Below are positions 2,722 to 62,458 of a stretch of 64,000 nt of DNA, piece after piece; within the stretch, counting starts at the first letter, position 1; each line of letters opens with the position of its first letter. Location of the stretch: the NCBI GenBank assembly GCA_958009085.1, contig OY253677.1, forward strand, positions 124,001 through 188,000, in the 5' to 3' direction. The position numbers and the translations under genes were made by a program. Source of the stretch: Protoeuglena noctilucae. Taxonomy: Eukaryota. The notes beneath the pieces were generated by a model that searched no databases, had not been told where the DNA came from, and saw only the letters and a list, made by a program, of their open reading frames with translations.

Positions 2722-2747
2722 GTGAGGTACTGCTTACGCACACCCAG

Positions 2748-7692: not shown

Positions 7693-7892
7693 NNNNNNNN
7701 NNNNNNNNNNNNNNNNNNNNNNNNNNNNNNNNNNNNNNNNNNNNNNNNNNNNNNNNNNNNNNNNNNNNNNNNNNNNNNNNNNNNNNNNNNNNNNNNNNNN
7801 NNNNNNNNNNNNNNNNNNNNNNNNNNNNNNNNNNNNNNNNNNNNNNNNNNNNNNNNNNNNNNNNNNNNNNNNNNNNNNNNNNNNNNNNNNNN
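7693..7892. other. Assembly gap (200 N)
   Basis: Run of exactly 200 N, typical of a scaffolding join of unknown size. Confidence 0.99.
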
Positions 7893-12729: not shown

Positions 12730-12755
12730 CTGGGTGTGCGTAAGCAGTACCTCAC

Positions 12756-26574: not shown

Positions 26575-26627
26575 ATTTGCTACTGGGAGGAACCAGGGTT
26601 GTGGATTTTGCTTGACTTTTGCCAACC

Positions 26628-29600
26628 ATGAAGCTCTCTACTCTCCGCGCGGGCGCGGCCATGGCCCTGGTTGCCGCCCTCGCCACCCTGTGCGGTAGCG
26701 CCTTCGCTGGCGTGCAGAACGTCAGGCGAGAAGCCGCTCCCCGAACGCTGCTCGGAGCCGCCCCCCTCCCCTTCCCAACACTTCCTTGGAACACAATCGC
26801 CATCCCCCCCCTGCAGCGGAGTCGCACGTCCCGGCACGGGAGCGATGAACGTCACCGATCCGATGGCCCACGGATACGGTGAGGAGTCGCGGGCAGGCAC
26901 CCGCTGGCCTGGCGCGTCTCAGCCAAGGCCTTGTCCGAGCGCTGCCATGTCCCCCCCCTCCCCCCCCCCGCGCAGGCCGGCGCTCGCTGCTCAACGTGAC
27001 GGGGTCCACGACCGCCCCCATCATACGGGATGTCCCGCCCGTCGTCACCTTCGCCGAGACGCGGGACGAGGCGGGCATCTCCCAGGGGTACCCCAACGTC
27101 CAGCTCATGCCGACCGTGGAGGTCAAGGACCGCGAGGCCCTGCCCCTGGGCACGACGACGACCACCGACACCATCACCAGCATCACCGTCGCGTGGGACA
27201 CCACCACGGACGCCAACGTGAGCCCCACGCGCGCCCCCACGCGCCCCGCGTCTTCCACAGCCGGCCGCTGACCTGCGCGGGCCTCCCCTCCCTCCCGCAG
27301 GACGCCATCCTGACGTGCACCTCGTCCACGCATTGCTCGAGCACGCTCGTCGGCTCGGCGTCTTCGGCCGCCGCGGTGTACACCGGGTCGACCGGCACGC
27401 TGGCAGACGTGCAGGCGGCGCTGCGGAACCTCTACTTCGCAAACTCCTCCAACACTCCCGGTGAGGGGCACCCGCGGAGTGCGTCTGCGGAATGTCGCCC
27501 TCCCTCTCCGCCGCCGTTCCGCCCTGCAGCTGATCCGGCTGATCCGGCATCCACCCCTCCCCCCCCCCCCCTCCCCTGCAGTGGCCGGCAAGCGCACGGC
27601 GACCTTCACTGTCACCTACGGCAGCGGCACGTCGCAGACCTTCTCCCAGGTCATCTACGTCCTCGCGACTAACGAGGTGCCGGTGCTGTGCCTGATGCCG
27701 CTGGACAGCAGCCGCTGCCAGCAGACAAGCGCCACCGTCACGTACGTGGTGGAGAACGTCCCTGCCGACGCAACCCCCACGGTCAACGTGTTCGGGAGCC
27801 AAGTCACGTGAGGCAGGATGCCGATGGAAAACGACGGCGCTGCCCCCGCGCATTGCATTCGTGGGTCTGATAGCAGCCAGTCTGACCCCCGCCCCGTGCC
27901 CGCCACGCAGGGCCACGGACGTCGACCTGGTTGGCAGCGACCCGCGCCTCATGGTGCGCCTCACCGTCCCCGCCGGCTCCCTGTCCGCGGCTGACAAGCT
28001 GTTCATCGGTGAGCCGCCTCCGCTGATGGGGTGCCCCGCGTGTTAGTGCCTGGCGCATGCCTGCTGAGCTGCCCCGCTCCCGCCCCGCGCACGCAGACTC
28101 GGCGGCCGTCCCTGCCAACGTGAGCCTCTCGACGCTCCAGAACGGGACCATGCTCGAGTTCCGCACCACGCGGACGGCGGGCCCCGACGGCACGTTCGAC
28201 ACGGCCACGCTGACGGCGATCAACAACGACTTCGCCACCGTGCTGCAGAACATCCAGTACCAGGTGAGGGACGCCGTCGAGCGAGCACAGATCACAGACG
28301 TGCTCGACCTCCCTCGGATCCGTCGACTGCCTTGCCCACCCCCCCCCCCCGTTCGCTCGCCCCCGTTGCCGACCGCGCCTCCCGAGCCCCTCCCCGCAGA
28401 AGATCAGCGCCACGACGGACGCCATCACGACCACCTCGGACAAGGCCCGCCGCCTGGTGACGGCCTTCCTGTTCGAGAACCCCAGCAACCCCGAGGACGT
28501 CACCACGGTGCACGACGACCGCGACATCACGCGCCGCAGCAACGTCAACCGCCGCCCCGTGGTGGCCGGCCTCTGCGAGTCCGCGGCGTGGTACTACGAG
28601 AACGACCTGGAGGTCACAGGGACCAGCGACGCCAGCGGGAGCTTCCACTGCGACTACAACTCCTCGAAGACCAGCTACAACCCGCCCCTGTCGGCCGCGA
28701 CCCTCGGCGACGCGGACGGCAGCCCCCTCCTGCGCATGGAGGTGGAAATCACGGGCCCCAGCGGTGAGCACGAGCTGCAGTGCCCGGACAGCCTCCCGTC
28801 CGGCATGAGCTGCTTCGAGGTGTACCCCTCGACGCTGTCGAGCAACCAGTCCGACTACGTCAACACGGTGGTGGTGGAATCGGTCAGCGGCAACCCGGCC
28901 TCGGACTTCCAGGCCGTGCTGCGTGGCGTCGCGTACGTCAACCACGGCGGCGACGACCCTGTGAACGGCCCCAGCATGTGCGCCACGATCACCGTCACGG
29001 TGTGGGACAATGTGCCCGACGGCGTGGCGGACGTGATCGGCGACGACTTCGGGTCCCAGAGCGACTGCGTGCCCGACCTGTGCGCGGGCGGCGCGCAGGA
29101 CCGCCCCGTGTGCCGCGTCTCCGGCGGGACGTGCACCGCCGGCCACATCTCCCAGACGCAGCTGTGCGTGCTGCCGCGCAACGACCTCCCCGACGTGACG
29201 GCCTCTGGCACGGCCGTGTGGACGGAGATTTGCGACAACACGGCCAATGCCAGCAACTACATCAACGTGTTCGGCACCGGCAGCGACCAGGCGTCCATCA
29301 GCATCAACGACGTGGACAGCGCCGTGTGGATGGTCACGGTGGCGCTCGACACCGCCAGCACCGGGTCGCTGAGCTGCGCGGCCGCGGAGAGCAACAACTA
29401 CAACTGCAGCGTCTCGGGCAACACGCTGACGCTCGAGTACAAGGACGGGCAGTCCGCCCTCGTCTACCAGAGCGGCTCCGACATCCAGGGCGCGTCCGTG
29501 ACGGCGGCGCTGGCGTCGGTGGTGCGCTTCAAGGACATCGACGACACGCCCCAGACGGGCACCTTCGCCGTCATCGTCACCGTCTACGACGCCGAGCTCG

Positions 29601-32600
29601 ACACGGCCGCAGGCGAGGCGCAGACAAACCCTTCCAAGACGGTCCACGTCAAGGTCAACTCGTGCAACGACCAGTGCACGTGGAGCGGGTCGGCGCTCAA
29701 GGATGGCGGCCAGTGGACGGAGGCGAGCGACCAGGGCGTGGCGTGGGCGCTGTTCGACGCTTCGTCCGGCTCGCTGTCGATCGGCGACGTGGACAGCGCC
29801 GACCACATGGGCCGCGTGGAGGTGTCCCTGTCGGCCGACGCGTCGCCCGGCACGGGCGACTCGACCGGCGCGCTCATGTGCGGGTCGGACCCCATCGTCG
29901 AGGCCACGACCTTCACGTCGGGCGCGACGGCTGTGCCGGCCATTGCCTTCGACAGCAGCGGCAACGTCGTCACCAGCCTCGCGGCCGGCAGCAACTACGT
30001 CTTCTGCGAGTGGACGGGCACGGGCCTCGGCAAGACGGTCACCATCCGCGTCCGCGACAGCACCCTGGCCGAGCAGTACGTGACGGCCACCGACCTGATG
30101 GGCTACGTGAAGTCGTACGTCCGCTTCTTTAACACGAGCAACCTGCCCATGCAGGCCACCTACACGGTCAGCATCACGGCCTACGACGTCGATGACACGG
30201 GCGCCGGGCACGGTAACGACACGACGGACCCCAAGTCGTGCACGCCGTCCACCCCGCCCACCTTCACCACGACGCCCCAGCTCGACCCGCTGCTGCTGTG
30301 CATCGTCGAGGGCGCCTGCACGTCGAGCGGCCTGCCCACAGAGGCCGTCTGCGACGAGCCCAACAGCGCGGGCTGCACCCGGGCCATGGACACGGACGCC
30401 TCCGCCTCGTGTGCGTGCTACGCCTACAGCGACAACCAGACGGTGCTGCAGGACCAGGCGCTCCAGCAGTACCAGCCGACCTTCTCCGAGGGCGCCTCGA
30501 CGGGCGTGACGCTGCTGACGATCAAGAACGCCGACCGCAGCCCGACCTACACGGCCATCACCGGCCACTCGCCCTACTCCCCTTCCTGCACGTCGTGCAA
30601 GACGCAGAACCTCGACGCGACCGCCATGTACGTGCTCGACAAGGAGCACAAGGACGGGCAGCCCATCAACGTGTCTCTGAGCTGGGTGGCCAGCCCCGGC
30701 GGCAACGCCGACTACCTGTGCGCCACGGCGGCATGCACCCCCACCCTCGCGTCGGGGGCGTACTCCAACTACGCGACCCTGTCGCCCAGCTGGCTCGCGC
30801 AGGTCAGCGGGGCCTCCAGCGGGTCTTCCAGCATCACCACCGTCAGCTACGAGTACATCGGCGCCACGACCGCCGACACGATCGACATTTCCGATGTGGC
30901 TGACCGCGTGGTGCAGTTCTACTTCGGCAAGACGTCGTACACGAGCGACGACGACAACACGCGCCTGAGCGTGCACGTCGAGATCGGCCGCACGAGCCAC
31001 GCGTGCCAGCTCAGCGGGTCAACGACGTGGCAGTGGACGGAGCGGCTCAACACGGCCGAGATTGCCTGGACGGTCCAGAACCTGATGAGCAACAACGCCT
31101 CGGGCACGGGTACGAGCGCGTCCCTGTCGCTGACGGACCAAGACCGCCGGGGGTACCGCCACTGGACGACCTCGGACGGGACCACATACAGCTGCCCCGG
31201 GACGAGCTCGGCGACGAGCGCCCAGGACTGCTACTTCGCCCAGGTGCAGCTCACCACGTCGGACTACGGCCTGCTCGCCTGCAACGCGTCGGTCAGCTCC
31301 ACGTGCCAGGGCTACAACCTCGGCGGGACGGCCAACGCCTGCGTGGCGTGCGCGCTCTCCAGCGACCAGAAGACGGCGACGCTCTACTTCACCCATGACT
31401 ACGCCGACCGCATCTACTCGCAGTACACGTCGACGCTGACGTACGACGCCTCCAACAACCTCACCAGCGACGCGCCGCTGGTCGCCGCGCACAACGAGAT
31501 GACGGGCCTGGTCACCAATGCCCTGCAGAACTACGTGACGTTCGAGGTGGACGCGGACAAGCCCACCCTGGGCAGCACGTCCGTGAAGCTGACGGTCTGG
31601 GACGGCGGCGTGGAGGCCACCAACGCGTCGGCGGCGGTGGACCCGTCGACATGCACGCTCACGGCCAGCGTGGACGAGCTGTGCAAGAACGACACGATCA
31701 CGGTGTCGGCCACGTCGGGCAACACGTACACGGAGCAGAGCGTCCCGGTGTCCGTTTTCAACACGGTGACCATCGTGGACAGCGTCATCTCGCCTGCGGA
31801 GGACGACCTCCAGTCGGCCACGGTGCAGCTGGACAACGGCGCCGTCGGCCTCGTCTGCGGCGCCGCGTCCAGCTCTGGCTGCTCGTGCGCGGGAGCGGGC
31901 TCCTCGACGGGCCACCCGACGCAGGTGGCGGGCGGGTCTGCCGCCACCCTGTACAACAAGCTCTCCATCCAGTGCGTGGACGTGGCGGCCTCGGACATCG
32001 AGAGCGCCATCGCAAGCCTCGTGATGTACCAGAGCCCCGTCCGCGACTGCCTGCAGTCGGGGAGTGTGACCGGCACGCTGGCCGTCACGGACGCCAACCC
32101 CGACGGCTGCGACAACGGCACCAACACGGTGTCGACCACCTTCAGCATCACCCTGGCCGGCAAGGACGACCCCCCGCGCCTGTACCAGAGCAGCCCGAGC
32201 ATCGGGTTCTTCTACGAACCGTCGAGCGCGGCAGCGGGCACGTCCGAGGTCTCCGCCGCGGGGTCCACGGCCGCCATCTCGGGCTCCTTCAGCGAGTCGG
32301 ACCTCGACGCCGTCAACAACGGCGGATACACGTTCCTTGCCTCGGGTTTCCCCGGCGACATCTCCCCCCTGAGCATCGGCTTCCTGGCGGATGCGGATGG
32401 CGCCAGCCCCTCGGGCGCCTTCGACACGGTGGACACCCTCGTGGTGGTCATGACGGCCAACCACCCCTCCGAGCACACCCTGGCGTGCGGGGCTGCCGGC
32501 CCCTCCGTGTCTTGCTCTGCCTCGTACGGGGCTGTCGACGACAACAACACGATGGGGTGGACGGTGACGCCGGCCCCTCCGTGTCTTGCTCTGCCTCGTA

Positions 32601-35600
32601 CGGGGCTGTCGACGACAACAACACGATGGGGTGGACGGTGACGAAGTACACGGGTGACGTGGAGGGAACCAGCGCGACCAGCGCGGAGCAGGTGCTCGCG
32701 GTGCTGTCGGCGCTCGAGTACACCAACAACGGCCGGACGGGCTGTGGCAACACGTACCAGGACGCCCACGACACACTGACCTTCTCCTTCGCCCTCAAGG
32801 ACCACACGGCGAGCCAGTGCTCTGCCAACCCCGACTCCACCAACACGTACAAGAACGTGATCCAGCTCACGTACAACACAAAGAACAACCCCCCCACGGT
32901 GTCGGGCACCCTGGGCACCAAGACGTGGCAGGAGGGCGTCAAGTCCACCAACCTCGTGACGGGGCAGGAGGCGGGCGTGGAGACGAACCAGCACGCGCCC
33001 GTGCCGCTGTTCGACCCGCAGGTCATCTCGTTCAACGACGTGGACAGCTGTGACCGGATCGCCTCAGTCGTGGTGACGCTGACCCCCCCCACGCTGCCGG
33101 CCAACTACGTCCCGTCCGACGTGGGCCAGCTGGTGGCGGTGGACCCGAGCAATCTCAGCAGCTACAATCCCGCGGTCTCGGCGTCCATCCCGGGCATCAC
33201 CTCGGTGTCCACGACTGTCTCGGCCACATCCATCACGCTGACCCTCACGGGCAGCAACTTCACGGTGGGCCAGGCCGCGACGGCGCTCACGTACGTGGCC
33301 TACCTTAACAGCTCGGACACGCCCCTCGGGGGGCAGTACGCCGTCGACATCACCATCAACGACAACGGCGACCATGGCAACGACCCCAGCTCCAAGTCCG
33401 GGAACCTTTCCTCCTCGTCCTTCCTGACTGTGACGGCCACGAACGACGCCCCGGTCCTGTGCCCGAGCGCCACTTACGACTCTACCAAGACGTATCCGGA
33501 TCATGCCGGCGTTGAGGTCACCGACTCAGTCACCTACCCGCTCCCCACCCCCCACCACACGCACCCTTGGCTGGCCTTCAGCACGTCCGGTGCGAACGGC
33601 GGGGCCTGCGAGAAGACATGGACGGTGGACAGCAGCATGCATGTCACGTGGACGGAGCCGGCGGGCGGCACCTGCACGGGCACCAGCCCCGCGTCGGTGC
33701 CGCTGCTGGGCGACATGCCCCTCCTGTTCGACGCCGACCTGGACAACGCCTTCACGGTCATCGTGACCATGACGTGCGCCGCCACCGGCTGCGACCAGGG
33801 GGAGGGCCTGTCGGCCCCCCACTCCAACCTTCAGGGCAGCATCGCGAACAATGTTATCACGCTGCAGCCCTCGGGCACACTGTCCTTCGCGGGCGTGGCC
33901 ACCTTCCTCGCGGACGTGACGTACACCAACACCAACAACACCCCCACGAGCGGGTCCCGGGCCGTGGACATCATCATCGGTGACCACGCGTACGTGCCGA
34001 ACAACATGTCCTCGACCAACTCGTACGCGGAGATCGTGACGGCCATCACGGTCAAGTCCAGCAACGATCCGCCCACGACGAGCTGCACGGGCAGCGCGTG
34101 CAGCACCTGCGCGGACCCGACGAGCTGCACGGCGGTCGGCTACTCGGAGCACACGGTGACGTACAGCGCCAGCGACGACACCACCCACGGCCCCGACCGC
34201 CGCGTGGGCTACCTGAATGTGGTCACGGGCACGACGATCGGGGACGACACCAACTCGATCGGCTCCATCACGGTGGCCATCAGCAACGGCAGCGTGGCGG
34301 ACTACCTGTCGTGCGCCGCCAACATTGGCAGCGACTGCAGCGAGGGCAGCTGGGACGAGGACAGCATGACGACCGCGAACGACGAGATCACGTGCGGGTA
34401 CAACAAGCTTCAGGGCGCCGCGGCCATCGTGAGCACCACGGCCGTGAGCGGCTCCAAGAACGCGACGTGCTCCTACGACCCCACCAGCCAGACGCTGACC
34501 ATCACGCCGGCGGGCGGCGCCACGGAGTTCACGACGGACGAGGCCACCGCGGCGCTCGCCTCCGTCTACTTCAGCGTCTTCACCGATGCGCCGGCGGTGT
34601 CTGAGCGCACGCTCACCATCGTCGTGACGGACGTCAACCACTCGGACAACACCACGTGCGGGAACCAGACGACGACGACGTACGTGCTGGTGGACGTGAC
34701 GCCCGAGAACGACCCGGCCACGTTTGAGACGTGCCAGGCTGTGACGTGCCTGCAGCGGCCCGGCTCGAGCCCCGCGCGCATCTACCAGGGCTGCCACCAG
34801 GTGGCCAAGGGGGCGTGCGGCACGGGCCTGTCCGTGCAGTGCTATGCTTACGACATCAAGCAGTCCGTGGCCAGCCCCTACAGCTACGCGTCGGTCCTGG
34901 CGGCGCTCTACGCCGAGCCCGAGACCCACGCTGACGGACTCCCGGCGCAGTGCAACACGGTGGTCGTGCCCCAGAACGGCGGCAACGTGCTCAGCGGCAA
35001 CATCGGCTCGCTCTCGTCGCTCATCCAGGGGACCTTCGGCGGGCCCTCTGTCGACACAAGCTACGACATCGCGTTCGTCAGCAGCCCCAACGTCTGGGGC
35101 CAGGTGTATGTGACGGACAACGCCGTGCCCTACACCAACACCAAGGTGGTGGATCACTCGGACTCGCAGGCCACCTTCTCCTGCGGCACCATCGTCGTCA
35201 AGGCCAACAGCGTAAACATGCTCCAGGCCTTCACCAGTGCGACCAGCGTGTCGTCCCTGCCCAACAGCGTGACGATCGCGGTCCGCGCGAGCCTGGCCGA
35301 CCCCAACCACGCGGGGGCCTTCCTCCCCTGCACGGCCCTGTCGACCGGCAACCCCACGGGCACGATCCCCGCCGACCTCTCGGGCTCGAGCTACTCGGCG
35401 GACTTCAGCCTGAAGAGCCTGGCGTTCCACAACACGTGCGTGGGCGAGACGACGCTGTACGACACGGACAACCAGACGAACGGCACGTCCAAGACCAACG
35501 CGACGGGCACGGCTGATCAGATCCAGAAGGTGACGGTGTCGGTGGACACCACGTATGGCGTGTACGCGGACAGCACCTACAGCCCTGCGGTGCCCATCGA

Positions 35601-38600
35601 GAGCGAGGACAGCCTCACCTTCGCGCCGGTGCCTGCCGTGACGAGCGCCTGCACCTCCAACTGCTCGACCCCGTGCCCTCCCTCTGTCGCCTCCACGTGC
35701 TGGTCCCACCCCGACGTGAATGTCACCCTCGGGTACAACGCGAGTAGCCTGACGATGACGCTCGTGCCCAAGTTGGGCCAGTACATGACCCACCAGGACG
35801 TGGTGACGGCCCTGAAGACGGTTGAGTACGTCAACTCATCGGCAGAGCCGACGCGGTGCAACAACATGGACGGCCAGGTCTACTCGGGCCCGAACTGCAC
35901 GACGGCGGACCGCCGCATCGTGACGGTGCTGACGGACGACCTGGGCGCCATCACGGAGGTGCACACGTACCTGACGATCGAGGTGACGAACCAACTGCCG
36001 CAGGTCAGCCAGCCGGCTGACCAGGACTGGTACGAGTCCTCCAAGAAGCCCTTCGGCGCCACGGGGGCTACGACTGTCACGCAGCTCATCCCCACCCTCT
36101 CGACCCTCTACGACCCCGACAGCTTCGTCGAGATCCACGTCGTGTGCAACAACTGCCCAACCGGCGCCCAGATCCGGTGCCGGGACACGACGGGCACGGA
36201 CCTGACGGGCAGCAACCTCCCCTCGACCACCATCGCGTGCTCGGACCTGAACGCCGTCGACTCCACCCGCTATGGCGTGGTCCTCAAGCAGCAGGCGGGC
36301 CTGGCCGACTCGGGCATCCGCATCAACGACGCGGCCGGCAAGGCCAACGCCCTCGCGGCGCTGTCCTACGTCTACTACGTCGACAGCGACCGCGACGTGC
36401 AGCAGCAGTGCGTCAGCGTGACACTCGAGGTCAAGGACCTGGCGGTGCAGGCTCTGCCCCCCGCCAACGTGGTGTCCCAGGACTTCACCGTCTACCTACA
36501 CTCGTTCAACAAGCCGGAGTGGGGCGCGTACGTCTCCCCCGCCAGCCCCTTCACGCTGTCCGCCTGGGACGAGTCCACGCAGCAGGGCGCCCCCTTCTCG
36601 CTCTTCCCGGCGGGCACGGCGACCATCCTGCACGGTGACTCGGACACGCACCTGCGCTCGGCCAAGGCGGTCCTGACGTTGCCGTCGGTGAACCCCAACT
36701 ACACGGACGAGCCCGGCGCGCTCATGTGCGGCACGGACCCGTCGATCGCGGGTGCCACCTACTCGACTGACACGGTCGGCGGCACGGCCTTCGCGGTCGT
36801 GTTCGACGCCTCGACCCACGCCGTTGTGGCCTCCCCCGCGGTGGGCACCGCCTATGTCTTCTGCGAGGTGCAGGACATCAAGACGCTTGTGTTCACCACG
36901 CAAGCAGTCGGCGGCGGGCGGGGTGCGGGAGTCGCAGGACATGGACCGCGCCACGGTCCAGGGCGTCATCTCCAGCCTCCTCTACTACTGGAACACGAGC
37001 AACATCCCCCGGCCGGGCACCTACTCGGTGGCCATCACCGTCACGGACAGCGGCGACGACCTCCTCTCGGTGGATTCGTCCTCGTGCAACAACCAGAACG
37101 GCGGCGACTGCACGCCCAAGACTAGCGACGCGACGGTCATGAGCTTCACGCTCAACGACGCGGAGGACGGCCTCGAGATCTGCTGGCTCAAGTCGGCGGG
37201 GACAGCGGCCGACCTGCCCCAGGAGGCCGTGTGCGCCGTTCCGCACCAGCTGGACGCCAACGGCGCCGCGCTCTGCACTCTCAAGACGGACCAGCCGGCC
37301 AGCTCGGACGCGACCAAGGTGGTCTGCGCGCTGGACAGCGACTCGGACCCCGCTGAGCTCACGCCTTTCGCGCCCGGCACGGACCAGAGCACGTACAGCC
37401 CTCGCTTCGTCGAGAACACGGCCGGCGCGCTGATCTTCCCCATCACGAGCGCTTTCGGCACCGACAACGTCGACGTCTCCGACCTGTACGTCATCGACCG
37501 CGAGCACGGCGAGGGGGCCTACAACCCCATCAACTCGGCCGTGTTCTTTGCGTACGACGAGGTCCTCTGCAGCGCTTCTACGGCAAGTCCAGGGGGGCGC
37601 TGCCGGGGCCCTGGACAGACCCCAACCAATGCTCTCCTGTTTCCTTACAATTTTTTCTCCTTCCCCTCGCAGGGCTCGACCTACACCTTCTCCGTGCCCT
37701 CCAGCAACCCCTGGACGCCGGTGTTGGTCGGCTCGCTCACCGCGGGCGACTACCGCTTCACTCTCACGTCGGGCTGCCTCGCGTGGGTGCCCTCGGCCGG
37801 CGCCATGTCCACCTATGGTCACGTGTTCGGCAGCACAGGCGGCTTCAAGCTCACGGACAGCAGCGGGACCCCCCTTCCCATCAACGATGTGCACGGCAAC
37901 GCCCTCGGCTTCCTGCCGGGCGTCCCCGTGAGTGCGTCTGGCAATGTCGTCACCAGTACTCAGGTGAGGTCTGGCGGGGGCTGCCCGCGCATGAGCGAGC
38001 CGCGGCGAGCACGGGCTTCGCAACCTGACACCACGCCACCGCGACCCGCGTCCGCAGTGCGATAGCCTGCTGGTGAATGAGCAAGTTCTCATCTCGGTGG
38101 ACTTCACCATGACGAGCAGCGGTGGCGCTGTGCCCATCTACGTGGATCTTATCGCGAACGGCGTGTCGGCGGTGACGGGATCTGTGTCGTTCAAGATCGA
38201 GCCGCTGTCGGTGAGGGCCAGCGTACGGAGTCCGGGGGGGTTTGTGCCTTGAGAGGCCTGCCGAGCGCGACCCAACCCCACGCCTCTCCTCGCTCTTACA
38301 GTGCACGCATGTCGACAAGCTTCGGGAGTGCAGTTGCAACGCATCGACCTGCGAGAGCGCGGACCCCTCCCAGCCGTCGTGGTCGTCAACCTCCGACAAC
38401 GACTGCAATGGCCAGAGCTTCGGCCTGATCCCCAGCCCCGTGTGGACCAATAAGCTGGACGGGACGTCGGTGCAGAACGACGACTTTGCCGGCCTTGGGC
38501 TCTCCCATGACTCCACGGCGTCGGACGCGTCGGACTTCCTGGACATTGCGCCGCGCCAGGTCGAGTTCTTCTTCAAGAAGAGGTACGCGTCGGCGTACCG

Positions 38601-41600
38601 GTACGGCGCGGACTTCAAGGTGGACGTGCTCGTGATCCCCGTCAATATGCCCCCAACCGTCGCCATCACGGCGCCCCGGGCGCGCTACGTGGAGAGCAAC
38701 GCCACGAGTGCCTCGGTCACGGCCGACACGTGCAACACGGCCCAGACCGGCGACTGGCCGGCCGTGTCGCTGTGGACGCTCCTGAACCCGACGTGCGACA
38801 CGTCGCTGGGCGACATGTCCACGTGCTCCCAGGCAACGGCGGACAGTGACGTGGTGGCGGTCAGCGACAGCCTGACGCGCGGCTTCCGCTACTACAACGC
38901 CAGTACGGGCACCTGCAACAACGGCACGGCGTCCGCCACGAGCCCCTCCGACTGCTATTTCGCCGAGATCTCCCTGACGACGTGCGCGACGCCCACCTAC
39001 GCGTCGATCGACTGCGTCGCCACGGTCCCGACGAGCGTCTCGGACCTCTTCATGTCCGACGGCACGACCCCGAAGGTGGTGTGCAGTCAGGTTGACTCCA
39101 AGACGGTGCGCCTGGCCTTCTCTTCCAACTACCTGGCGACCTTCCCGGTGTGGTCGGACGCCACGACCCCCGAGAACCAGGCCAACACGACCCAGCAGGC
39201 CACCACAATCCAGGCGGCCATCCTTCACCAGGTCGTGTACCGCAACCCCGGCGACGACCCCAGCTACTGGCAGGGCTCCCTGCAGGTCACTATCTGGGAC
39301 AGCGGCTCGTCCGCCTCGGGCGGCACAACGAACCCCCCGCTGTCGTCCTCATCCAACGTCCAGAAATTCTGGAATGATAAGGTGAACGACGCGCCCACGT
39401 GCACGACGTCGGGCTCGCTGACCACCTACGTGGAGCAGCAGACGGTCTCGGCCTTCTCCGGCCTCACCTTCACCTTTACGGATGGCGTGGACCCCAGCAC
39501 GCTGGGCTGCAGCAGCACGTTCGGCGGCCCGCCGGAGAACCGCCTCGCCAAGGCGACGGTGTCGGCCAACGACTCCAACCTCGGCGTGCTCAAGAACTCG
39601 CTGTCATGCAGCAGCATCAACCAGTCGAGCATCCTCTCGGCCCTGGGCACGTGCTCGGTGGACGCCAACGGCCTGGTGACGCTGACGGCCGCCAACCTGT
39701 CTGGCAGCTTTTCTCAGCTGCAGCAGCTGCTCGGGGCGCTCCAGTTCACGCACGAGAGCGGGGACGCGCTCCAGTCGGGCACGGTGACCATCTACGACGA
39801 CGGCCACAACTACAAGGGCACGGTGGGCGCGGGCACCGTCCTCAGCGCGGACTGCGGCAGCATCCAGCTCTCCCTGTGCGCCGTGAACGACCCCCCGCGC
39901 GTCACGTTCAAGAACACCCTGCCGGCCGGGAAGGGGCAGGTCACGGTCACGGAGGGCCAGTGGGACCAGACCGCCGGCTTCGCCCTCTTCACGGAGACCG
40001 ACGGCAACGACTCGACGCAGCTGGACCTCAACTACGCCACGTTCGGTTTCACGGGCGTCGCGGACGACACGTGCGCCAGCGGCTATGACAGCGCGCAGAA
40101 GGACGTCCTCAAGTACGTCGTCATCACGGCGCGCGAGGCCACCAGCTACACAGACACGGTCGGCCAGCACGTGCTGTCGTGCGGCACGCTGACGCCGTCC
40201 GCCTCGCCCGTGTCGTGCACCCAGGGCAGCGTCACCTCCAACACGGGGGGGAACCTCACGATCGACAGCACGGACATGCTGTCCGTGACGCTCCAGTACA
40301 GCGGCAGCCAGGACGGCGACGCCTCCGTCCAGGCCATCGAGGCGGCCCTGCTGGACCTCGTGTACTTCAACCGCGGCACGACCCTCTGCGGCAACTGCGA
40401 GGCGAGCACCCTGGCCTTCGAGAATTTCACCAAGGACTCCTTTACGGGGGTCACCACGCCTGTGGGGTGGACGATCGACTCCGCCCTCTGGGAGGCCAAC
40501 CACACGTATTTGGTACTCGCCTCCTGTGGCACGCCAGCGCTCTACAAGGACCCCAGCGTTGTCCCCGCGGCAGAGGTGGTTGGGTACAACGACCCTACTG
40601 CCTCGGCGCCTTCGTGCGACTGGAGCACTATTGAGGGCGTTGACCCGCAGGCCGTGGAAGCGATGTCCCTGCTGCTCAGTGGAGCCAATGCCCCTTCCTC
40701 GCCCGTCACTGGCGACACCCACTACGACGCCCTGCAGCTCAACCTCAACTCGAGTTCGCCTATCGCGACCTCGTACAGCGTCACGCTAAACAGTCCCATT
40801 CTCAACGCGGGGAGTGGCACGATCCGCGTGACGTTCGACGTCGTCGCACAGATCTTTTCTCCGAACTCCTCCAGTGACGGGCGGACTGTGCTGGTCCACG
40901 TCCTCAACAACGGGTCAGATGAGGTGTCGCAGGTGGTGCTGACCGTGCCGACGCCTGCTGGTTCGCCGGCCGCTCTGTACCAGACGGTTAGCTTGACTCA
41001 GGCGTGCTTCACCTACACGTCCACGAGCTCGACGGAGCAGCTGCAGTTCGAGGTCCAGATCCCAGCAGGGGCAGTGGGGCTGGGCGCCGTCCTCGTCGAC
41101 AACGTCGCCTTTACGCAAGGTGGCTCGTGCGGCGCTCCCCTGGCGTCGCTTCCGCTCTCTTCCCCATACCTGACCGCGTCACGCCGCCTCGCGGCTACCT
41201 CGGACGTCCTTGTCCCCCTCGTCAGCACCGTCCTGCCCAACAACCCCTTCGCTTCGAGCGCGGCGACGCGCCGCCTGGCCGAGAGCCTCGGGGTGAACGT
41301 GTCCCGCCGGCGCCTGTCCACCGTTACCCCCGGCGACTACCCCACCTGCCTGGTGGAGAGCAAGGACGCCTACTGGCCGGACGCGACCCAGGACTGGGAG
41401 CTCATCCTGAACTTCACCATGGTCGACACGGCACTCGAGTCCTCGAGCATGGACATGTGGAAGGTGGAGCTCAAGACCAGCAACGATGCGCCGGCCATCG
41501 ACCACTCCGCCACGCCACCGATCAAGGTCTGGGTGGAGGACGAGCTCAGCCAGGATGGCAAGACGTCGGACAGCCTCGACCAGGGCAGGCCTTGGGCCAT

Positions 41601-44600
41601 CTTCGGCTACACGAACAACTTCCGCGAGGTCACCATCGGGGACATCGACAGCTGCGACAAGATCAACCGCCTGGAGGTCACGTTTGGGGCGTACGACAGC
41701 GCCAACGACACGACATACCCTGGCGTCCCCGCGATGTGCCCCAAGCCGACGTCGTGCACGTGCAAGCCCTGCAGCACGGGGACGTGCCAGTGCCTCCCCG
41801 ACGACACCGACCCCAGCTGCACGACGTGCCCTTCGGGTTTCACGTGCGGGGCGGTGTCTGTGACCCCTGCTGGCGCCCCCGCCATCATCGATGCCGAGTA
41901 CTGCCCCATCAAGAGCTGCTCGACTGACTTCGTGGGCGGGCCGGGTCCGAGCTGCCCGCCGGGACGCATGTACATCGACAACACCCTCGAGCTGGCCAAC
42001 CCGAACTCGCACCAGAAGATCATCACCAACCCCGGCACGCTCATGTGCGGCTACGATGCCTGGCTGACGGCCTTCTGGCAGGCGCTCGCCTCCGCGCAGG
42101 AGTACAGTAGCAATCCTGTCGTCCGTCTTCCCTCCACGCTTCCTGCCAACCCTGCCGCGCCGTCCGGCACTTCGGCGCCCAGTCGCTACCTGTGCGTGTG
42201 CGGCACAGCGCAGACGCCCTGCTACTGCAGCCTCGACACGAGGTGCAGATACGTCCAGCTCGCGGACCAGCCGGGTGCAAGCTGTGCGTACCTGACTTAC
42301 ACGGACCCGACCACAAACACCACGGTCAAGTGGACGGACCAGATGGCCCTGGCCATGGCGGACAGCGGCAACACCGACGCCCACACGGCGATGGTGGCCG
42401 CGCGTCAGCTTGTCGACATAAACGTTGCCGACACGGAGATCGACTCGTACGGCACCTACGCCGCCTTCGACGCGACCACGCTGAGGTGGGTGCCCAACAA
42501 CCTGCTGGTTGCCAACACCGACTACCTCGTCTGCGAATGGCTGACGGGCTTCATGGACGACAATGTCGTCCCTGGCGACTACACGACCGGCACGGACACC
42601 ATCTCGGGCTACTGGGGCGCCGACGCCAAGGTCACGCTGACCAAGCGCACCTTCACCGGCTCCGGGCTCAGCTCCACATACCTGGACATGACGATTGACG
42701 AGGCCGAGAAGCTGCTGATGAAGACCGACTACATGAACCCGTCCAACAAGCCACGACAGGGCATCTACTACGTGACGGTCGAGCTGTTCGACGATGGTGA
42801 CCAGGGCAACGACACGACGCAGCTCAGCGCCAAGACGACGGTGGAGTTTGACGTCACGGACTACAACGACCCCAACGACAAGGGCGGCAAGTACAGTTGC
42901 AGCATCTGCTCGTGTCTGGGCCCGAGCGCCACTGGCACTGGCACGTCCACGTAAAGCTGTGACTGCGAGTCGGACTCGCGGTGCACTGGTACGACCACCA
43001 GCACTTGCAGCCCAGCCAACAGCCAATCGCAGATCCCCAGCGACGGGTCATGCCCGTGCTGGTACACGGACCCCAACGTCAAGACATGCGGCCCGCCCCC
43101 TCCTCGCATCGAGGACTTCTGGCTGGGCCAGACGACTGTGTTCGTGGAGTACGGGCCGGGGGCGCAGGGCCTCAAGCCCTGCCCCTCGACGACGACGGGC
43201 CTGTGCAGCCTGCTGCAGAGCTCGGCGGACTACTACGCCAACGCAACGGCCCAGGCGCTGCTGGACCGAAACGCCCGCGGCATTGTCTTCATGGCCGACC
43301 AGAACACAGGCCGCACGCCGCTTTACGCGGAGAGGGTCAAGATGACGGACGCGGATCTGGCGTCGTACCACTTCGACATGATAGTAACGGGTGGGGATCC
43401 CGCGAATGACGTGATCGTCTACACAGGGCCCATCGTGTGCATGTACGGGACGGATCCTCAGACGCTGCTGTGCAAGCCGGGGCCCGGCAGCACCCCGTCT
43501 GCTCCGGGCGTCTACACGCCCGACGAGTACTCGTGCGCGAACGCGAACAGCCCCACGGTCAAGCCGGTCGTGAGCGCACCCAGCGTGACGCTCGGCCACA
43601 GCGTTTTGGACCCGATCGCCGACGACTACATGGTCACGACGCTGGACAGCCTGTACTACTGCACGCAGTTCCAGAACACCAGCAACGAGCCGGTGGCGGG
43701 AGTCCGCCGCGTGGATGTGACGATCACGCAGACGCAGAGCACTGGCAGCACCAACTTCACCGTCAACGTCCACAGCCGCGTACTCGTTATCCCCACCAAC
43801 GACCAGCCGGCCCTGTGCGACAACTCCACGGCCACGCCCTGCGCGACCACCATCACTTACACCGAGCACGCGGCTGCTGGTTGCGGCGGGAGCATCCCCA
43901 GCGCCAACGCCAACCCCGGCCCCGACCGGGACGTGTCGTTCCTGGCCCTCGTGCCCAGCGCCACCATCACGGACGACTCGACCAAGGCGCAGAAGGTGGT
44001 GTTCACGTTCGAGTCGGGCTACGCCCAGGGCCAGGACCTCCTCACGTGCTCGGGTGACGCGTCCCTGCGCCCCAACAGCGGCGACTTCGACCCGACGTCA
44101 CGGGGGCGTGCAAGCAGGACCTCTGGTACCCGCGCTTCAACTTCGACAACCAGAAGAGCTCGAGCACTGCCACGCTCGGCACCTCCACCTTCCTCCAGGC
44201 CGGCGTGCTCGGCTACCTCCTACCTAGCAGCAGCACCACGTACCCGCACCTCGTGGACGCGACGGGGTCGGACCTTTCCGTCCACCTGGACTACATGACG
44301 TGCGTGGACAACAAGCTGAGCAGTGCGGTCAGCAACAAGAGCACGATCACGACGTACTACGACACGGCCAACACTTGGCAGTGCGTCTTTGACCCGGTGG
44401 CGGGCACGCTGACCGTCACCAACACGGCGGGCCCTCAGAACAAGGGAGACTGGTCGGGCGTGCTGCACAGCGTGGCCTTCAGCACGTGGACGGATGCCCC
44501 CAGCACGACCAGCCGCGTGGTCCGCGTCGAGGTGCTCGACAAGGCCGAGGACGATGACTTCGGCTGCCAGGACAAGCTGCCGCAGCCCACATGCACCTCC

Positions 44601-47600
44601 AGCTGCCCTGCCGCCTGCGACATCACCGACTTCGGGTGCGACTGGGTGGTCCTCGCGAAGCCTTCCGCATCGATGCTGTCGTGCGCATGGACAGCGGCCA
44701 ACGCCACGTCGCTCGGCAGCTGCCACACGTGCGACCAGTGGAGCGTCGGCCACAAGTACGACCCCACTGCCACGGTCAGCCCGGCCGACGACGCCCTCGT
44801 GCGCCGGGTCACGGTCAGCCTCACGCCTGCGGATGACCCCCCCTTCATCACGGCTGAGTCGCCCCTCACGTTCGACGAGAACAGCCAGCCGGTGGCCACG
44901 ATCAAGATGTTTATTCAGGACGGGTCGACCAAGTTCAACATCTCGGACTTCGACGGCATCTCCGACGGCTTCAAGACCCTGACGATGACGTTCAACAACA
45001 ACCCCGCCTCCCCCCCAATCGCTGCGTATAGGATCCCGCGGACGAGCACCACTCCTAGCGTGCTGACCGATAATGCGAAGCAACTGCTGCTGGACCAGGA
45101 AACTGACACGACCATCTCGAGCCAGGGCCCCGTCTACGTGAGCACCGAGGATTCGTTCATGTACCAGTGTGGGAGCGACAACACCTTCACCTCGTGCCTG
45201 GTGCAGACGAACTACCTCCCACCCTCGGCGACGACGTGCTACCTGGAGGACAGCACCACTTCGCCCGACGGGTTGACGTACCGGATGTGCTGGTACCGAG
45301 ATGGCCGCGCCGCGTCCATTGGCACCTTGCTGCCGCCAGGGACGCTGGAGATCACGACAACGGGCGTCTCCGGAAGCAAGTGCATGACGGCTGCAGGTCT
45401 CAAGTACATCATGCAACGCATCTACTACCAGAACGCCGAGGAGTACCTGCCGGACCTGCGCCCGCGCGAGGTGGTGGTGCAGCTCACGGACTGCACGGGG
45501 GCGAGGGTGGCCGGCGCGTGCACGGAGATCGACATCCGACTTCTCGATGACGCGCGAGAACGACCCGCCCACCATCCAGGGCATCTCGGACGAGGTCATG
45601 TTCGTCGAGTCGTCGCTGTACTCGAACCAGTGCTACGACCTGACGACCCAGACCGTCATTACCAACACGGATCCGACCCAGACGTGTGATAACTTCACGC
45701 ACAAGATGCCCATCGTGCCCTTCGCCGTCTACAACGACGGCGACTCGGTCGCGACGATGGGTGGCCGTGTGCGGATCGAGATCAATTACACGCCGGCCCT
45801 GACTAACGTCAACACGGCCCCGCAGACCATCCTGGCCGTTGAGACGCAGGACGTCATGGGCTGCGACGTGTCGACGATCCAGCGCGCCCTCGACGACGCG
45901 CGCTGCCAGTGGAAGATGCTGACGGGCACGGACCCGACCGACAGCTCGGGCAACCCCGTCACGCCTAACTGCGTGCGCGAGCCTCAGCGCGACATCAACT
46001 ACGCGGTCATCAAGGATTCTGGTGGCCAGGTGGCCAAAGGCATCTGCTCGGCGGAGTGCACCAACGTCCCTGGCAGCACGTCGTGCATGTCTCTGACGCT
46101 CGATGTGCCGGCCTACGCGCCGTGGGGCCTGTACTCAGACACGTACATCACCGCAAGCGACCTGTGCAACAAGCTGCGGAACAATGAAGGAAACGGAACG
46201 ATGAAGGACCTCGAGAGCAAGATCAACGTCTACAACAGCAACGTGGGCACCATGGCGTGCGAGTGGGACCCGGCGTCTGGCGCCGTCTTCATCTGCCAGC
46301 CTGACCCCAACAACCCGCCGCCGGCCGGCGAGCCCCAGTGCTACACGAAGGACGGCTCGTGTGCTCTCGACTTCGCGTACTCGACGGTGGTGCCTGCGAG
46401 CTTCGACCCGACCATTTCCAACGACCCGCTCTACTCGGCTTACCAGAGCATCATGAACCTCAACACGTGCAGCGTGCCCCGCGGGTCGGCGTACACGCTT
46501 CCGATGGGCATGGACGTACTCAGCGCCTTCTACAGCTCGATCTACTACTTCAACTCCAACGACAACCCCAACCCCACGCCCCGCGGCCTCGCGGTGGTCG
46601 GGTGGGAGTGCGTTATTCACCCCGCCAACCCGGGCAAGTGCTCTTGCGTCGACGACTCGACCGTCTCCTCGGGCTCTACTCCTGCCCCTGCCGCCTCCCC
46701 TGAGCTCTGCTCCAACACAGCGCGCAAGGCCATGACTGTCCCGAGCGTCTACATCAAGCTCACCAACGACAAGCCGCGGCTCAAGCAGTCCCTGGACTGC
46801 ACTGTCGACCCCACGGGCTGCACCACCGCCGAGTACGTCATGTCGCTGCCAACGGACGACACCAAGCCCAACCCGCCGGCGACCGGCACACCCACGATCC
46901 AGTCTTTCAACACGAGCAACACGGCTGACGGCGTCGAGCTTACCCTGCTGTACCAGGAGCAGGCCAGCCCGCTGCTGGTCTTTGCCGACACGGATGTGTC
47001 GATGGTGGATTCGGACTACGTCTACTGGGTCCGCACGGTCATGACGGACGCAACACAGGGGCAGGACGAGCTGGGCTGCTACTACGGGGGCACGTTCGGC
47101 GTCACCGACTTCTGCCTCACGGCCAACGGCGACATCGTCACGGCGTGGAAGGCGGGTGACGCCGGGGCCCCGGCCGGATGCGACACGGCGAATGGCCAGG
47201 TCCACGGCGTGTGCGCAGTGCAGCCGTTCTGTGGCAAGGACGCCAACGCCACGGTGGACTGCGCCGACGGCGAGACGCACTCGACCTGCATGTACTTCTA
47301 CGACGCGAACGACTCGACGTCGTGCAACGCCACGTCCACGCGCGGCTCCATCTTCGTCAACATTATGCGCGCCGGCCAACTCGCCCCGACGGCGTGGGAT
47401 TCTACACCCGGGCTCACTGCCAGCCAGGCGACGTCCATCCTCCACACGCTGGCGTACTACAACCCGGGCAACTCGTCGACTTGCTACACGGACCTTAACG
47501 GCACCAAGTTGCAGCGCCGCCTGCGCGTCGTCGTGACGGACGAGACATACAACCTCATGAACTCGACGCCCTTCTCCAACTGGTTCACGCCTGGCCCCAA

Positions 47601-50600
47601 CCCGACGCCCGCGTCGACGGGCCCGGGGAGCGACCTCGTCACGGAGGGCTCGCAGTGGCAGGCGGGCCTGGACAGCAACCCGACGTTCCGGTCGCTCATG
47701 CTCCTGAACAAGGACAACGACATGAGCTTCTCGGACCCAAGCACGCCGGACTCGCCAGGCACGGACGCCACTGGCTCCCCGGGCTTCTCGAGCTCCAACC
47801 CTCTGCAGCGCGTGTGGGTCGAGGTCAACGGCCCGCAGCCGCAGACCAACGCGAACCTGCCGAACGAGCTCTACAACGGCATGATCTACCTCCTCCCCAA
47901 CGCCACCGTGTCCGACCTCGACGGCACCCTCTACCAGAGCGCGCGGTTCGAGTTCACGTCCAACTTCCACCGGCGGCAGGTGTCGCTGCAGAACTGTGAC
48001 TCCACGTGCCCCAACACCGGCACCAATGACCCGTGCAACTGTGGCGGCTTCACGGGCCCGATTGAGGACGAGATCTTCTGCAACTGGGACGAGTACACGA
48101 CGCTCAAGAGCAGCCCGACTCAGCTGCTGTCCAAGTACAACATGACGCCTGACGATGTGGACGCGCTGATGTCCAGGGTCGACTGCAAGTGGAGGTTCGA
48201 CGACAACACGAATTCGGTGCTGCTGGACAACGGCACGGTGGCCAGCGGCGGCACGCCAAACGCCAACCTGCTCATCCGCGGCGTGGTGGACGCGACCACG
48301 GGCGATCGGTACCTGCTGTCGCAGACCGACCTGACGCGCACGCTGCGGATCGTGGCGTACAAGAACAACTTCGCGTACCCGCACCCCACCAAGTACGACA
48401 CGACCAACAACGTCTACACATCCGAGGGTATGCACACCGTCACCGTGACCATCACGGACCAGGGCGACCTGACGCCCAAGGGCGGCACGGGCCCCGGGGT
48501 CGAGTGCGGGCAGTGGCTGCCGTGCACGACCAACTGCGGGTCGGACAATATCTCCAAGGTCAAGAAGCTCTACCTGGAGGTCGCGGTGCAGCCGGGCCTG
48601 GAGGACGCGCTGCTCCTCGAGAACATGCAGTGGGGCCCGTGCAGCGCGGCGCCCGACTGCGTGCAGACGCGCAACCCCATCTGTCAGAGCCACCAGTGGG
48701 CCTGGGGCGTGGCGCGCAAGACGGACACGACGGGCCACACCAGCCTGGGCAACATGACCATGACGCTCACCGACGGCACGGTCCTGACGGTCGAGCAGGT
48801 CAACTTCACGCCCATGTTCCACTCAGACGGGACGCCGTACGTCCAGCCCATCACCTTCTGCGGGGCGATGTCGACCATCTCGCAGACGTGCTCGTTCGTG
48901 GACTGCCCGCGCTTCCAGTGGGTTACGTCGGCGTGGAGCTCGTGCGACGCGACCACGTGCAACAGCACGCAGCAGCGCAGCGCCTTCTGCAAGGCGGTGG
49001 GCCTGCCCTTCTACATCACGCCGTCGTCGGACAACTGCGTCAGCCCGCCCACGGGCACGGACCTGGTGCAGCTCAGCCCCAGCGACTGGACTACCAACAA
49101 CTACTGCACGTGCAAGCAGTCCTCCGTGCCGACGCTGGTGCAGCAGTGCCCTTCGACGGACTGCTCAGGCACCAGGCTGGTGGAGGGCATCCTCTCGGCC
49201 TGCACCAAGACGTGCAGCACCAAGGACTCGAACGGCAACTACCAGGGCGGCAACCAGTCGCGCGTCCTGAAGTGCATGCAGTCCGGGACGGTGTCGACCG
49301 ACTTCGCCACTTGCATCCAGTCGGCCGCCCTGCCGGACAACTCCACGTGGACGTGCGTGGTGGGTGCCAACTCCGTCAAGACGTGCTCATCAAGCACAAG
49401 TGGGTCGGGCACGCGCACGGCCACCGAACTGCAGAACGGGTGCAGGCAGTGCAGCGTCTCGACCGACGGGAAGACGTGCACGGAGACGCTCCTCAACAGC
49501 TGCGGCATGACGCCCTGCCCGACGCCCTTCTACGTGCCGCAAGCGTGGGGCGCGTGCAGCGTGCCCAACCCTGCCCCGGCCAACAACCCCTGCGCCGGCA
49601 CGAGGACTCGTACCAACTACTGCATGATGCCGACGGCTTACGGCCTCGTCCCGACGTCCGACTCGGACTGCGGGACGGACTCGAGCCCTCCCACATCGCA
49701 GGCTTGCATCTCCACGTCGTGCAATTGCGACGCCGACACCACGGCAAAACTCGACATGACCTCCGGCGAGTTCGCCAACGGCACGTGCCTGGGCAGTGCT
49801 GTGACGTGCGACAAGGGCTACATCCTCGTCAAGGGCGACAACGGCCTCCTCAGCTGCGTGGCCGACCAGCTGCAGTGCCCCCAGGGCCAGATGTCCTACT
49901 ATGGCAAGGCCACAGATGACGCCGCGGACAAGTGGAGGTGCTGCGGCGGCCTGGACGTCACTGGCCTGTGCTGTGCGCAGGGTGCGCCGTCCATGATTGA
50001 CCCCACTACCAAGGTGAGTCTTGGCGTCGTGGCGGCAGGCCCTTACACAAACCGCGCAAGGAAGATCGAAATGCTTTATTTTGCTTCTCCCTCTTGTCTC
50101 CGCAGAATTCGGTTTGCTGCCAGGTCGGGGAGATCCTCGACGAGTGCGGCACGTGCCACAACCCCAACAACGGCCCTGGCGGCGTGTGGTCGGCGGCCGA
50201 CAACAAGTGCTGCACGGACGGCGAGATCTCCGTCGATGGCCACTGCTGCGCCGGCACGTCCAAGCGTGACGACTGCGGCGTGTGCGGCGGCAGTAACTCG
50301 TGCCTGGTCCAAGTATCCGGCGTGGCGGGTGTGGTCGGGACGCCCCAGGCGGTCACCGGCAGGCGCGCTCTCCAGCAGTCATCGGATGCACAGGCGAGGG
50401 TCAGGTGCTAGTGGCATGATGAAAGTTGTGTGGGTGGCAAGTGCCTCACCTCACCCCACCCCGCTGCATCTGCAGAGCATTGCCTCGGCGGTCGCCAGCA
50501 TCCTCGGCATCAGCACGAGCCGCGTGGTCGTGACGAGCACCTCTGACACGACTCTGTCGTCCACCTCCGGCAACCGCCGGCTCCAGCAGAGCGGGGCCGT

Positions 50601-51709
50601 CAACACGGTGGCCTTCACGCTGCAGATTAAGGCTGCCTCGGCAGTTGGCGACGTGCCGACTGTGTCGTCCGTCCAGGCGGCCCTGTCGGGCAACTCGGGC
50701 ACGTCCTCGGTCCTGTTCGGGTCCGTGTCGTCGTCGCCCCAGGGCATCGCGGGCAACATGCTCTGTGAGGTGGGCGAGTCGTACTCGACCGTGCCGGGCG
50801 ACTGCCCGACGCCGCCGACGACCCAAGTCTGCGAGACGCCCAGCTCTGGCGTCGGGAATGTGCTCGCCATGTGCGCTGGGAACGGGTCGTGCGTCCAGGG
50901 TGCCTGCCAGTGCAAGCCGGGCTACACGGGAACAGGCTGCAACATGTGCGCCCCCGGCTACCAGCAGTCTGGCCAGTTCTGCGTCGGCTCGTCCGCCTCG
51001 ACCGCCTCCACCTCGGGCTCGTCCCCGTCCTCTCCGGGGGCGGCCACCCCAGCGGCTGGGACTACCCCGGCGGCCGGCAAGTCGACGGGTGGTGCCACCA
51101 CCCCGGCTCCCGCGACGGGCTCTGGCTCGGCTGCGGCGGCGCCGGGCTCCAGCTCTGGCTCGTCGTCTCCGGGTGTTTCGGGCAACGCGGGCAGCGGTGC
51201 CCCCGCGCCCTCATCCAGGTGTGTGCCTGCAGCAGGGCATCACCAACGCCCAGCTGCCCCTGTGTTTCCTTGCCAGCCAAAACTGTTTCTCTCGCCGCTT
51301 CCGCAGTGCGCCGCCCACCCAGAACAGTGGCAACATGTCCACGGGCACAAGCACGGCGTCGGGCGGTTCGTCCAGCGCCGCCGGCACGGTGGGCGTGGCG
51401 TCTGCCTCGGGCGGCTCCAACGTGGCCATCATCGCCGGGTTCGCGGGTGCCGGCGTGGCGGTGGTGGGCATCGGCGCGTTTGCTGTGTACAGCATCAAGC
51501 GCAACCGGACGGAGGCGGCGACGGTGGCTGTGGCGCCCCTCGAGGAGGTGGTGCAGACGTCGGAGCCGTCGGCCGAGGCCGTCGCAAGCAAGGACACGAG
51601 CGTCACTTCCAAGATGGCTTCCGCCAAGGTGGCGCCGTCCCCCCCAGGGACGAGCGCCGGGCGGACCACCGAGGCGGTGGCGCCCGTGGATGATGTCGTG
51701 ATCTCTTGA
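26628..51709 (+). pseudogene. Giant (~7,900 aa) type-I membrane adhesin-like gene: signal peptide, tandem cadherin-like repeats with Cys-rich inserts, TSP1 repeats, SEA-like segment, EGF, S/T/G stalk, TM. Disrupted in this assembly by 4 frameshifts and 1 in-frame TAA.
   Basis: Signal peptide MKLSTLRAGAAMALVAALATLCGSAFA. 13 introns join in frame. Recurrent NDAP/NDPP, DxDS and 'ALxxVxYxNxSxxP..G.R.V.I.V.D' motifs. WVTSAWSSC/QAWGACS TSP1 motifs at 48900-49720, EGF at 50870-50985, TM VAIIAGFAGAGVAVVGIGAFAVYSI followed by KRNR. Lesions at 32569 (74-bp duplication), ~36898, 42952 (TAA), ~44099 and ~45536. Confidence 0.85.
32495..32642 (+). repeat. Perfect 74-bp tandem duplication causing a frameshift in the adhesin
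   Basis: 32495-32568 equals 32569-32642. The ORF switches from 28457..32641 to 31651..37125 here. Confidence 0.95.
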
Positions 51710-61397: not shown

Positions 61398-62458
61398 GGT
61401 GAGTCCCGCCACTGCTGGCAAGCCCTCCAAGGCGCGTCTGAAGCGGGAAGGGGTGCAAGCGAGACGATCATAACGACTCTGTGAAGCAGGTCCGGAAAGC
61501 GGGCCCAGCCGGGCAGGCACCGCGGAAAGGGCACTGACGCTCCGCGCGTCGTGATGGCGGGTGCGGGAGCGAGGTATACTGGGGCACTCCCGGCGCGCAA
61601 CATGGGGAGCTCCCCAGGCCAAACATCATGCATCGAGTGTCAGGTCCCGGCTCCGACGCGCACTCTAGCTCCAGGACGCTTCAGGCGGAAAAACGCCACG
61701 CGCGTCCGCGTGCGGGTTGCACATCGCGCGAGCACAACACAGTGACGGGATAAGCGACCAGACCGCGGCCGGCAGCGAGGTGGATGGGGGAGAAGGGTGG
61801 TTGGACGGCCAACCTTCGATGCCGGCGAATCGGCAGGTCCTTCGGCCCAAGACGAAGGCGAATGAAAAGGTGGGACGATGCGCGTTTCCGGGACGCGAGG
61901 CGCCCACGCAAACGCGAACCCCCGGCGAACACCCACAAGGAAGGCCGATGCGATTCGCGCGACAGCCCCCGTGCGAAGACAGACAATAAACAAGCCGACT
62001 GTGCGGTCGATTCGCGCCGCAGACGGTCCCGCCAGCGTGCTCCGCCCCGAAAAGTGCCACGCGAGCAGACCGCTTGCCTGATTGATTCTCTGAAGATGCA
62101 CAGGGGGAAAATCACATTCGACTCGAGTGCGGGGTTGGATACGACTGCTCCTGTGACCGGGCGCCTACAAAACGCCTTCGTAGCGCCGGCCTCCTATAAC
62201 TACGCGGACAGCGACAGTGACAGTGCACAGTAAAGAGCACCTGCCGCACCTCAGCCTGGGCATGAGCGGCAAAGCGTGGTGAGAACTGCATGTCAGTGCA
62301 ACAGGGGCAGGTGAAAGCACCGCCGCCACCCTCGGCGTATCCGCAGCGCCGTTGCGGTCAAGACAAGAGGACTTGAGGGGCTAACCCGAGGGTACTCGTC
62401 AGGTGGCCTGCGTGTCCGGCCGCGCAGGTTTGCATGCCCTGGACACACATGCGCAGGG

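Follow-up and report, generated by a model that had tools for sequence, protein, structure and literature searches.

Cadherins and protocadherins (PF00028) are type-I membrane proteins built from tandem beta-sandwiches, and cadherin-like modules are already known outside animals. Giant cadherin-bearing proteins occur in non-animal eukaryotes such as oomycetes and choanoflagellates; two reports mention nonagonal cadherins in oomycetes (PMC7409359) and cadherin-like domains in receptor kinases of chlorophytes (PMC12757656). Giant bacterial proteins that carry DUF4347, RTX and type I secretion system (T1SS), or type IX secretion system (T9SS) modules contain an unnamed, helix-bearing repeat of ~135 residues. 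We know of no giant cadherin-like surface rods in green algae. Here we describe a gene for a giant tandem-repeat protein in a 64,000-nucleotide stretch of the Protoeuglena noctilucae genome (contig C10, positions 124001-188000, of assembly G000; 26.3 Mb in 27 contigs, ~66% GC), which we call the window, together with a paralogue on contig C15. The genome carries light-harvesting (LHC) genes and two nuclear rbcS loci, each intron-split; intron-bearing nuclear rbcS and LHC genes point to a green alga, which the host likely is. Our best reading is that the two genes form a two-member family of giant surface rods, and that the window gene is quite probably a recently disabled, still transcribed copy.

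The gene was first proposed from sequence alone (the sequence-only reading) as a ~7,900-residue protein ending near 48600. It extends further, to 51709, and is split by 13 introns of 82-136 nucleotides, three of them of GC-AG type in our gene model. RNA run X7 joins all 10 introns within 26601-46600 and X9 joins 7 of these 10; the intron at 37583-37672 was recovered solely through RNA contigs. Database protein P0152 equals model residues 5999-7911 at 100% identity without gaps, so the last three introns and the C-terminus of the model are also supported. Reading through the gene with an X at each interruption gives 7,906 residues plus five X. The proposed length thus stands, but not as a continuous frame, since five breaks interrupt it (Table 1).

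Table 1. Features of the giant repeat-protein gene, in positions of the window
Feature	Position	Strand	Details and support
Whole gene, ATG to TGA	26628..51709	+	14 exons, 23,826 spliced nucleotides
Predicted signal peptide	26628..26714	+	Kyte-Doolittle 1.96
26 helix-bearing beta-sandwich (cadherin-like / CLSTN_C-like) repeats	27026..48588	+	147-532 residues each, Cys-rich inserts
Break 1, perfect 74-bp tandem duplication, shifts frame	32495..32643	+	Tandem Repeats Finder (TRF); X1 and X4 junction contigs
Break 2, frameshift within repeat 15, near 36910	36900..36925	+	X1, X4 and RNA X7 contigs
Break 3, in-frame TAA in repeat 21	42952..42954	+	Spanned without differences by X1, X4, X7 and X9
Break 4, frameshift in repeat 22, near 44088	44086..44091	+	X1, X4 and RNA X7 contigs
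Break 5, frameshift at end of repeat 23, near 45538	45536..45541	+	X1, X4 and RNA X7 contigs
TSP1-like and Cys-rich region	48589..50312	+	Atlas matches to TSP1 clusters, 0.82-0.85 (lead only)
SEA-like juxtamembrane module with dibasic RR-L motifs	50313..50760	+	Read from sequence
EGF-like domain	50872..50970	+	PF23106, E 2.4e-6, above cut-off
Ser/Thr/Gly/Pro stalk, single transmembrane helix (~51416-51485), short cytoplasmic tail	50990..51709	+	Hydropathy 2.21; paralogue has same layout

The sequence-only reading had treated the frameshifts as errors to be corrected, and did not mention the in-frame TAA. The reads support all five breaks. In each of the DNA runs X1 and X4 a single contig covers 32614-46600 without gaps or deviating letters, and RNA contigs from X7 match the window letter for letter across breaks 2-5. 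At break 1, junction contigs come from both X1 and X4, the duplication unit stands at raised depth in both runs (26.5 versus ~15 in X1), and the X7 RNA contigs end at the same places. Database proteins carry the same lesions: P0001 ends at the break 3 TAA, while P0002 and P0036 end in wrong-frame tails identical to those of breaks 2 and 5. No second allele is visible in the long single contigs of X1 and X4. Translated literally, the gene gives 1,764 residues with no membrane anchor (first stop 32639-32641), leaving more than 18.5 kb of spliced sequence untranslated past the stop at 32639. Ordinary translation of this genotype does not yield the intact ~7,900-residue protein, and as read from the sequence the mRNA would likely yield only the anchorless 1,764-residue fragment. 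One RNA contig of 20,755 nucleotides (window 32614-53900) exceeds the spliced length between 32614 and the stop by ~2.2 kb, and probably runs into the 3' end of the convergent gene downstream.

The paralogue at C15:567093-585857 is a single open frame of 6,255 codons that aligns to both flanks of all five break positions. Its open exon holds 24 repeats, its C-terminal layout is the same as that of the window gene, and a signal peptide can be seen by eye. Of the 24 window repeats compared (R3-R26), 20 best match their positional counterpart in C15, the other four matching a copy 10 repeats away. Because this colinear frame is open at all five sites, the breaks in the window gene are derived. 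The window gene is thus disrupted relative to an intact homologue and is transcribed and spliced (X7, X9, P0152), two of the features of a transcribed pseudogene. Under an assumed rate matrix, the single stop in 6,165 codons translates into ~0.2% neutral divergence (range 0.01-0.8%) after the disabling event, implying that the loss was recent. A frameshift scan over 714 kb placed three events in this gene, and 45,793 strong-coding codons outside it held one (p 0.015). The paralogue locus (L011-L013, G000:C15, ~565300-587985, + strand) also has a Gly/Ser/Tyr-rich N-terminal insert with RR-LMDS motifs, and a proprotein-convertase P-domain is inserted in one of its repeats.

The best-surviving alternative to outright loss is that truncation is useful: the 1,764-residue secreted fragment would be retained in the role of soluble matrix protein or decoy, with decay confined to the sequence beyond break 1. 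No lesion falls in the first 1,741 codons, where GC content at third codon positions (GC3) is highest at 0.95, X7 splices all seven 5' introns, and the fragment comprises the signal peptide and eight whole repeats. However, five random lesions would all spare the first 1,741 codons with a chance of 0.29, the product stops mid-repeat with 23 wrong-frame residues, and no shortened transcript was observed. We therefore regard a retained fragment as improbable. Programmed recoding, in which four frameshifts and readthrough of the UAA would give some full-length protein, is far less probable still. The mRNA is spliced fully through to the C-terminus, and stops are few despite the lower GC3 of the 3' half, as recoding would have it. 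Against this, a canonical slippery heptamer is present at none of the five break sites, downstream folding there (z -0.67 to +0.53) lies within the background of 40 windows, the C15 paralogue lacks the breaks and has no need of recoding, the perfect 74-bp duplication is a mutational signature, and the product of five low-efficiency events would be near zero. Least credible is an intact gene broken by assembly errors, as the sequence-only reading assumed: P0002 reads through break 1 and one run may be the assembly's own source, but the window is matched by DNA and RNA contigs whose runs come from four studies, and the same breaks terminate the database proteins P0001, P0002 and P0036. The case cautions that frame breaks may be genuine in a giant exon; repairing them here would create a protein not encoded by this genotype.

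Several observations weigh against recent disablement of the window gene. GC3 drops to 0.90 over the 3' half (36926-51709), from 0.95 over the 5' half, compared with 0.94-0.97 along the whole C15 paralogue. Neutral decay to this extent would bring ~24 stops and only one is present, so the fall does not stem from decay after the loss. The mRNA is still present although its stop codon lies more than 18.5 kb ahead of the end. The break 1 junction is read-confirmed in DNA, with no RNA junction contig among the records examined, and P0002 lacks the 74-bp duplication yet keeps break 2; the missing copy may reflect collapse during assembly or genuine variation. The runs show zero differences over 20 kb, which suggests that all derive from one clone; X1 may be the source DNA, and no second strain was seen. 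Rare forms are lost from assembled contigs, which are also no proof of a single transcript. Finally, break 1 and the TAA escaped the frameshift scan, whose power is lower in short exons.

The repeats themselves are well defined. More than 20 had been proposed; we find 26, and 25 of them (all except R6) beat 20 shuffles each in a leave-one-out hidden Markov model (HMM) test, which carries mild leakage as rows were taken out after joint alignment. The boundary signatures first given (NDAP, NDPP, NDLP, NDKP) describe part of the array: 13 of 27 boundaries fit [ND][DEN]xP and 19 fit [ND][DEN], the remainder deviating. The quoted helices and the DxD(S), TLTL and R.V.I.V.D motifs are all found in the translation, and a helix followed by Y-x-N precedes strand F. 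The described Cys-rich loop inserts are likewise there, with 1-21 Cys per repeat and 3.6% overall, against 0.03% in the match columns of non-self repeats. The array holds an old 10-repeat block duplication, visible as five reciprocal pairs ten repeats apart. The repeat 19 insert (window 40400-41200, +) resembles a carbohydrate-binding jelly roll by eye and is followed by three RR-L motifs; in the Pfam scan its only match was sub-threshold (NPCBM_assoc, E 0.049).

The repeat cores are predicted beta-sandwiches, and the cadherin-type Ca2+-ligand positions (acidic linker, xE, DxD and xDx) are mostly present. Among the aligned repeats (of 26), the acidic residues are retained at xE in 9/10, at DxD in 13/15 and 11/15, and at the F-strand D in 16/18. 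The family profile aligns to strands F-G-A-B of N-cadherin, including their Ca2+ motifs (E 0.0027). The cadherin LDRE motif has no such conserved column in the algal repeats, and neither PF00028 nor Cadherin_3/4/5 matched at E<=0.1 in nine window pieces or in the paralogue pieces. The Pfam search proposed with the sequence-only reading thus returned the EGF-like domain and no cadherin family. Counting against our overall reading, fold search places B4GALNT1 and cohesins ahead of cadherins, and residues 143-258 of human B4GALNT1 are among the closest known systems. Compared with the oomycete and choanoflagellate cadherins and the chlorophyte kinases, the algal protein has a single transmembrane helix, lacks a kinase, is built from another type of repeat and has a far longer array.

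Giant proteins that mostly look bacterial carry a helix-bearing beta-sandwich repeat to which the algal repeat is similar (hhalign probability 98.3%, E 1.4e-14). The two cores are homologous and share the linker, DxD, helix-Y-x-N and xDx motifs. Against a model built from 425 units, taken from 109 of 148 non-self matches, 21 of the 26 algal repeats scored above 50 shuffles. The bacterial repeat cross-matches CLSTN_C and Cadherin_4 in Pfam, and tandem-95 in NCBIfam below cut-off. CLSTN_C (PF19699), the calsyntenin C-terminal domain, is matched by 9/14 and 23/42 scanned relatives of the repeat and by none of the algal pieces scanned directly, linking it to the algal repeat transitively. Calsyntenins have a cadherin-cadherin-LamG architecture, in contrast to the algal protein with its 26 copies, no LamG and no canonical cadherin pair. 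The algal gene also differs from the bacterial giants in its signal peptide, introns, EGF-like domain, transmembrane helix and cytoplasmic tail in place of bacterial secretion tags, and in its large Cys-rich inserts and strong repeat divergence; no RTX, DUF4347 or T9SS module was found in the window pieces scanned.

The kinship with bacterial repeats proposed at first sight therefore holds, whereas derivation from bacteria is not shown by the repeat tree, which identifies no donor. That tree kept 27 of 50 algal repeats, 23 of which group in a single clade (FastTree 0.867; midpoint-rooted, with long branches), and bacterial transfer and old eukaryotic inheritance are both compatible with it. 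Inheritance from early eukaryotes, as a calsyntenin-type domain that never moved from bacteria into the alga, falls only a little short of even odds in our estimate. A eukaryotic-looking protein, P0132, has the same repeat. Evidence on the other side is that most of the 148 non-self matches are nearly Cys-free, with DUF4347, RTX and T9SS tags among 14 scanned, that Atlas matches bacterial clusters at 0.95 and the four Atlas clusters listed are all bacterial, and that a search for an algal orthologue of the window gene found none, which is weak evidence. The repeat has more than 1,000 relatives but lacks a dedicated Pfam model, and our searches turned up no solved structure; a literature search, with most subscription papers outside its reach, returned no description of the family. 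The giant cadherin-like surface protein family is real and apparently lineage-restricted.

Its layout runs in order from the signal peptide through the 26 repeats to a TSP1-like/Cys region, SEA-like module, EGF-like domain, stalk, one transmembrane helix and a short tail, and the model has only two hydrophobic stretches, the N-terminal one and the transmembrane helix. The TSP1-like/Cys-rich region gave no match in the Pfam scan and is 53% identical to its counterpart in C15; the juxtamembrane module, also without a Pfam match, is one we take to be SEA-like.

The working of the intact protein, from Ca2+ binding and rod shape to processing and role, is inferred here, and so is the loss of function; the calcium and rod steps come from general knowledge of cadherins. 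Signal peptide and transmembrane helix would expose the ectodomain at the cell surface. Between neighbouring domains, Ca2+ may be bound in cadherin-like fashion by acidic residues of the linker (NDxP) and of strands A (xE), B (DxD) and F (xDx), stiffening ~26 domains, each ~4.5 nm long, into a rod of roughly 120 nm. Disulphide-bonded, glycosylated inserts could decorate this rod as binding or spacer modules, and the dibasic RR-L sites may let a subtilase-type convertase clip or shed it. The role would likely be in adhesion or a surface coat. Judged by its sequence, the C15 copy likely still makes the predicted Ca2+-stiffened surface rod, and this unbroken gene offers a candidate that can be tested for a part in adhesion, coat structure, or virus and grazer contact. 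A fuller scenario is possible though doubtful as a whole: the alga would have taken up a bacterial giant-adhesin repeat and expanded it to ~26 Cys-decorated copies on a TSP1-SEA-EGF-transmembrane anchor; the C15 gene would display the ~120 nm Ca2+-stiffened rod; the window copy, broken along with a neighbouring membrane subtilase, would record recent loss or conversion to a secreted decoy; and the repeat, as a domain family that has no name yet, would connect bacterial adhesins with calsyntenin and the alga.

That neighbour is a convergent gene (window 52600-61400, -) for a membrane-anchored subtilase (Pfam S8) with repeats, a Pro/Thr stalk, SEA-like modules and a transmembrane helix. Its frame is shifted in the assembly by a perfect 34-bp tandem duplication (54812-54880), outside the read-covered range; to see here the joint loss of a substrate, the repeat protein, and its protease would be speculative. 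The assembly holds a third lesion of the duplication type, a 7-nucleotide tandem duplication that shifts the frame of locus L060 (G000:C5:799774, +), a gene that we presume to be bZIP-like. Elsewhere in the window, a gene fragment at 21131-22042 (-) adjoins a 34-bp tandem array (22135-22543) and is presumably similar to the flagellar protein IQCA1/DRC11, the Pfam scan giving no match. A 5.7-kb inverted repeat (1882-7586 and 7893-13595, 99.93% identical) surrounds an N gap (7693-7892) and is likely an assembly fold-back.

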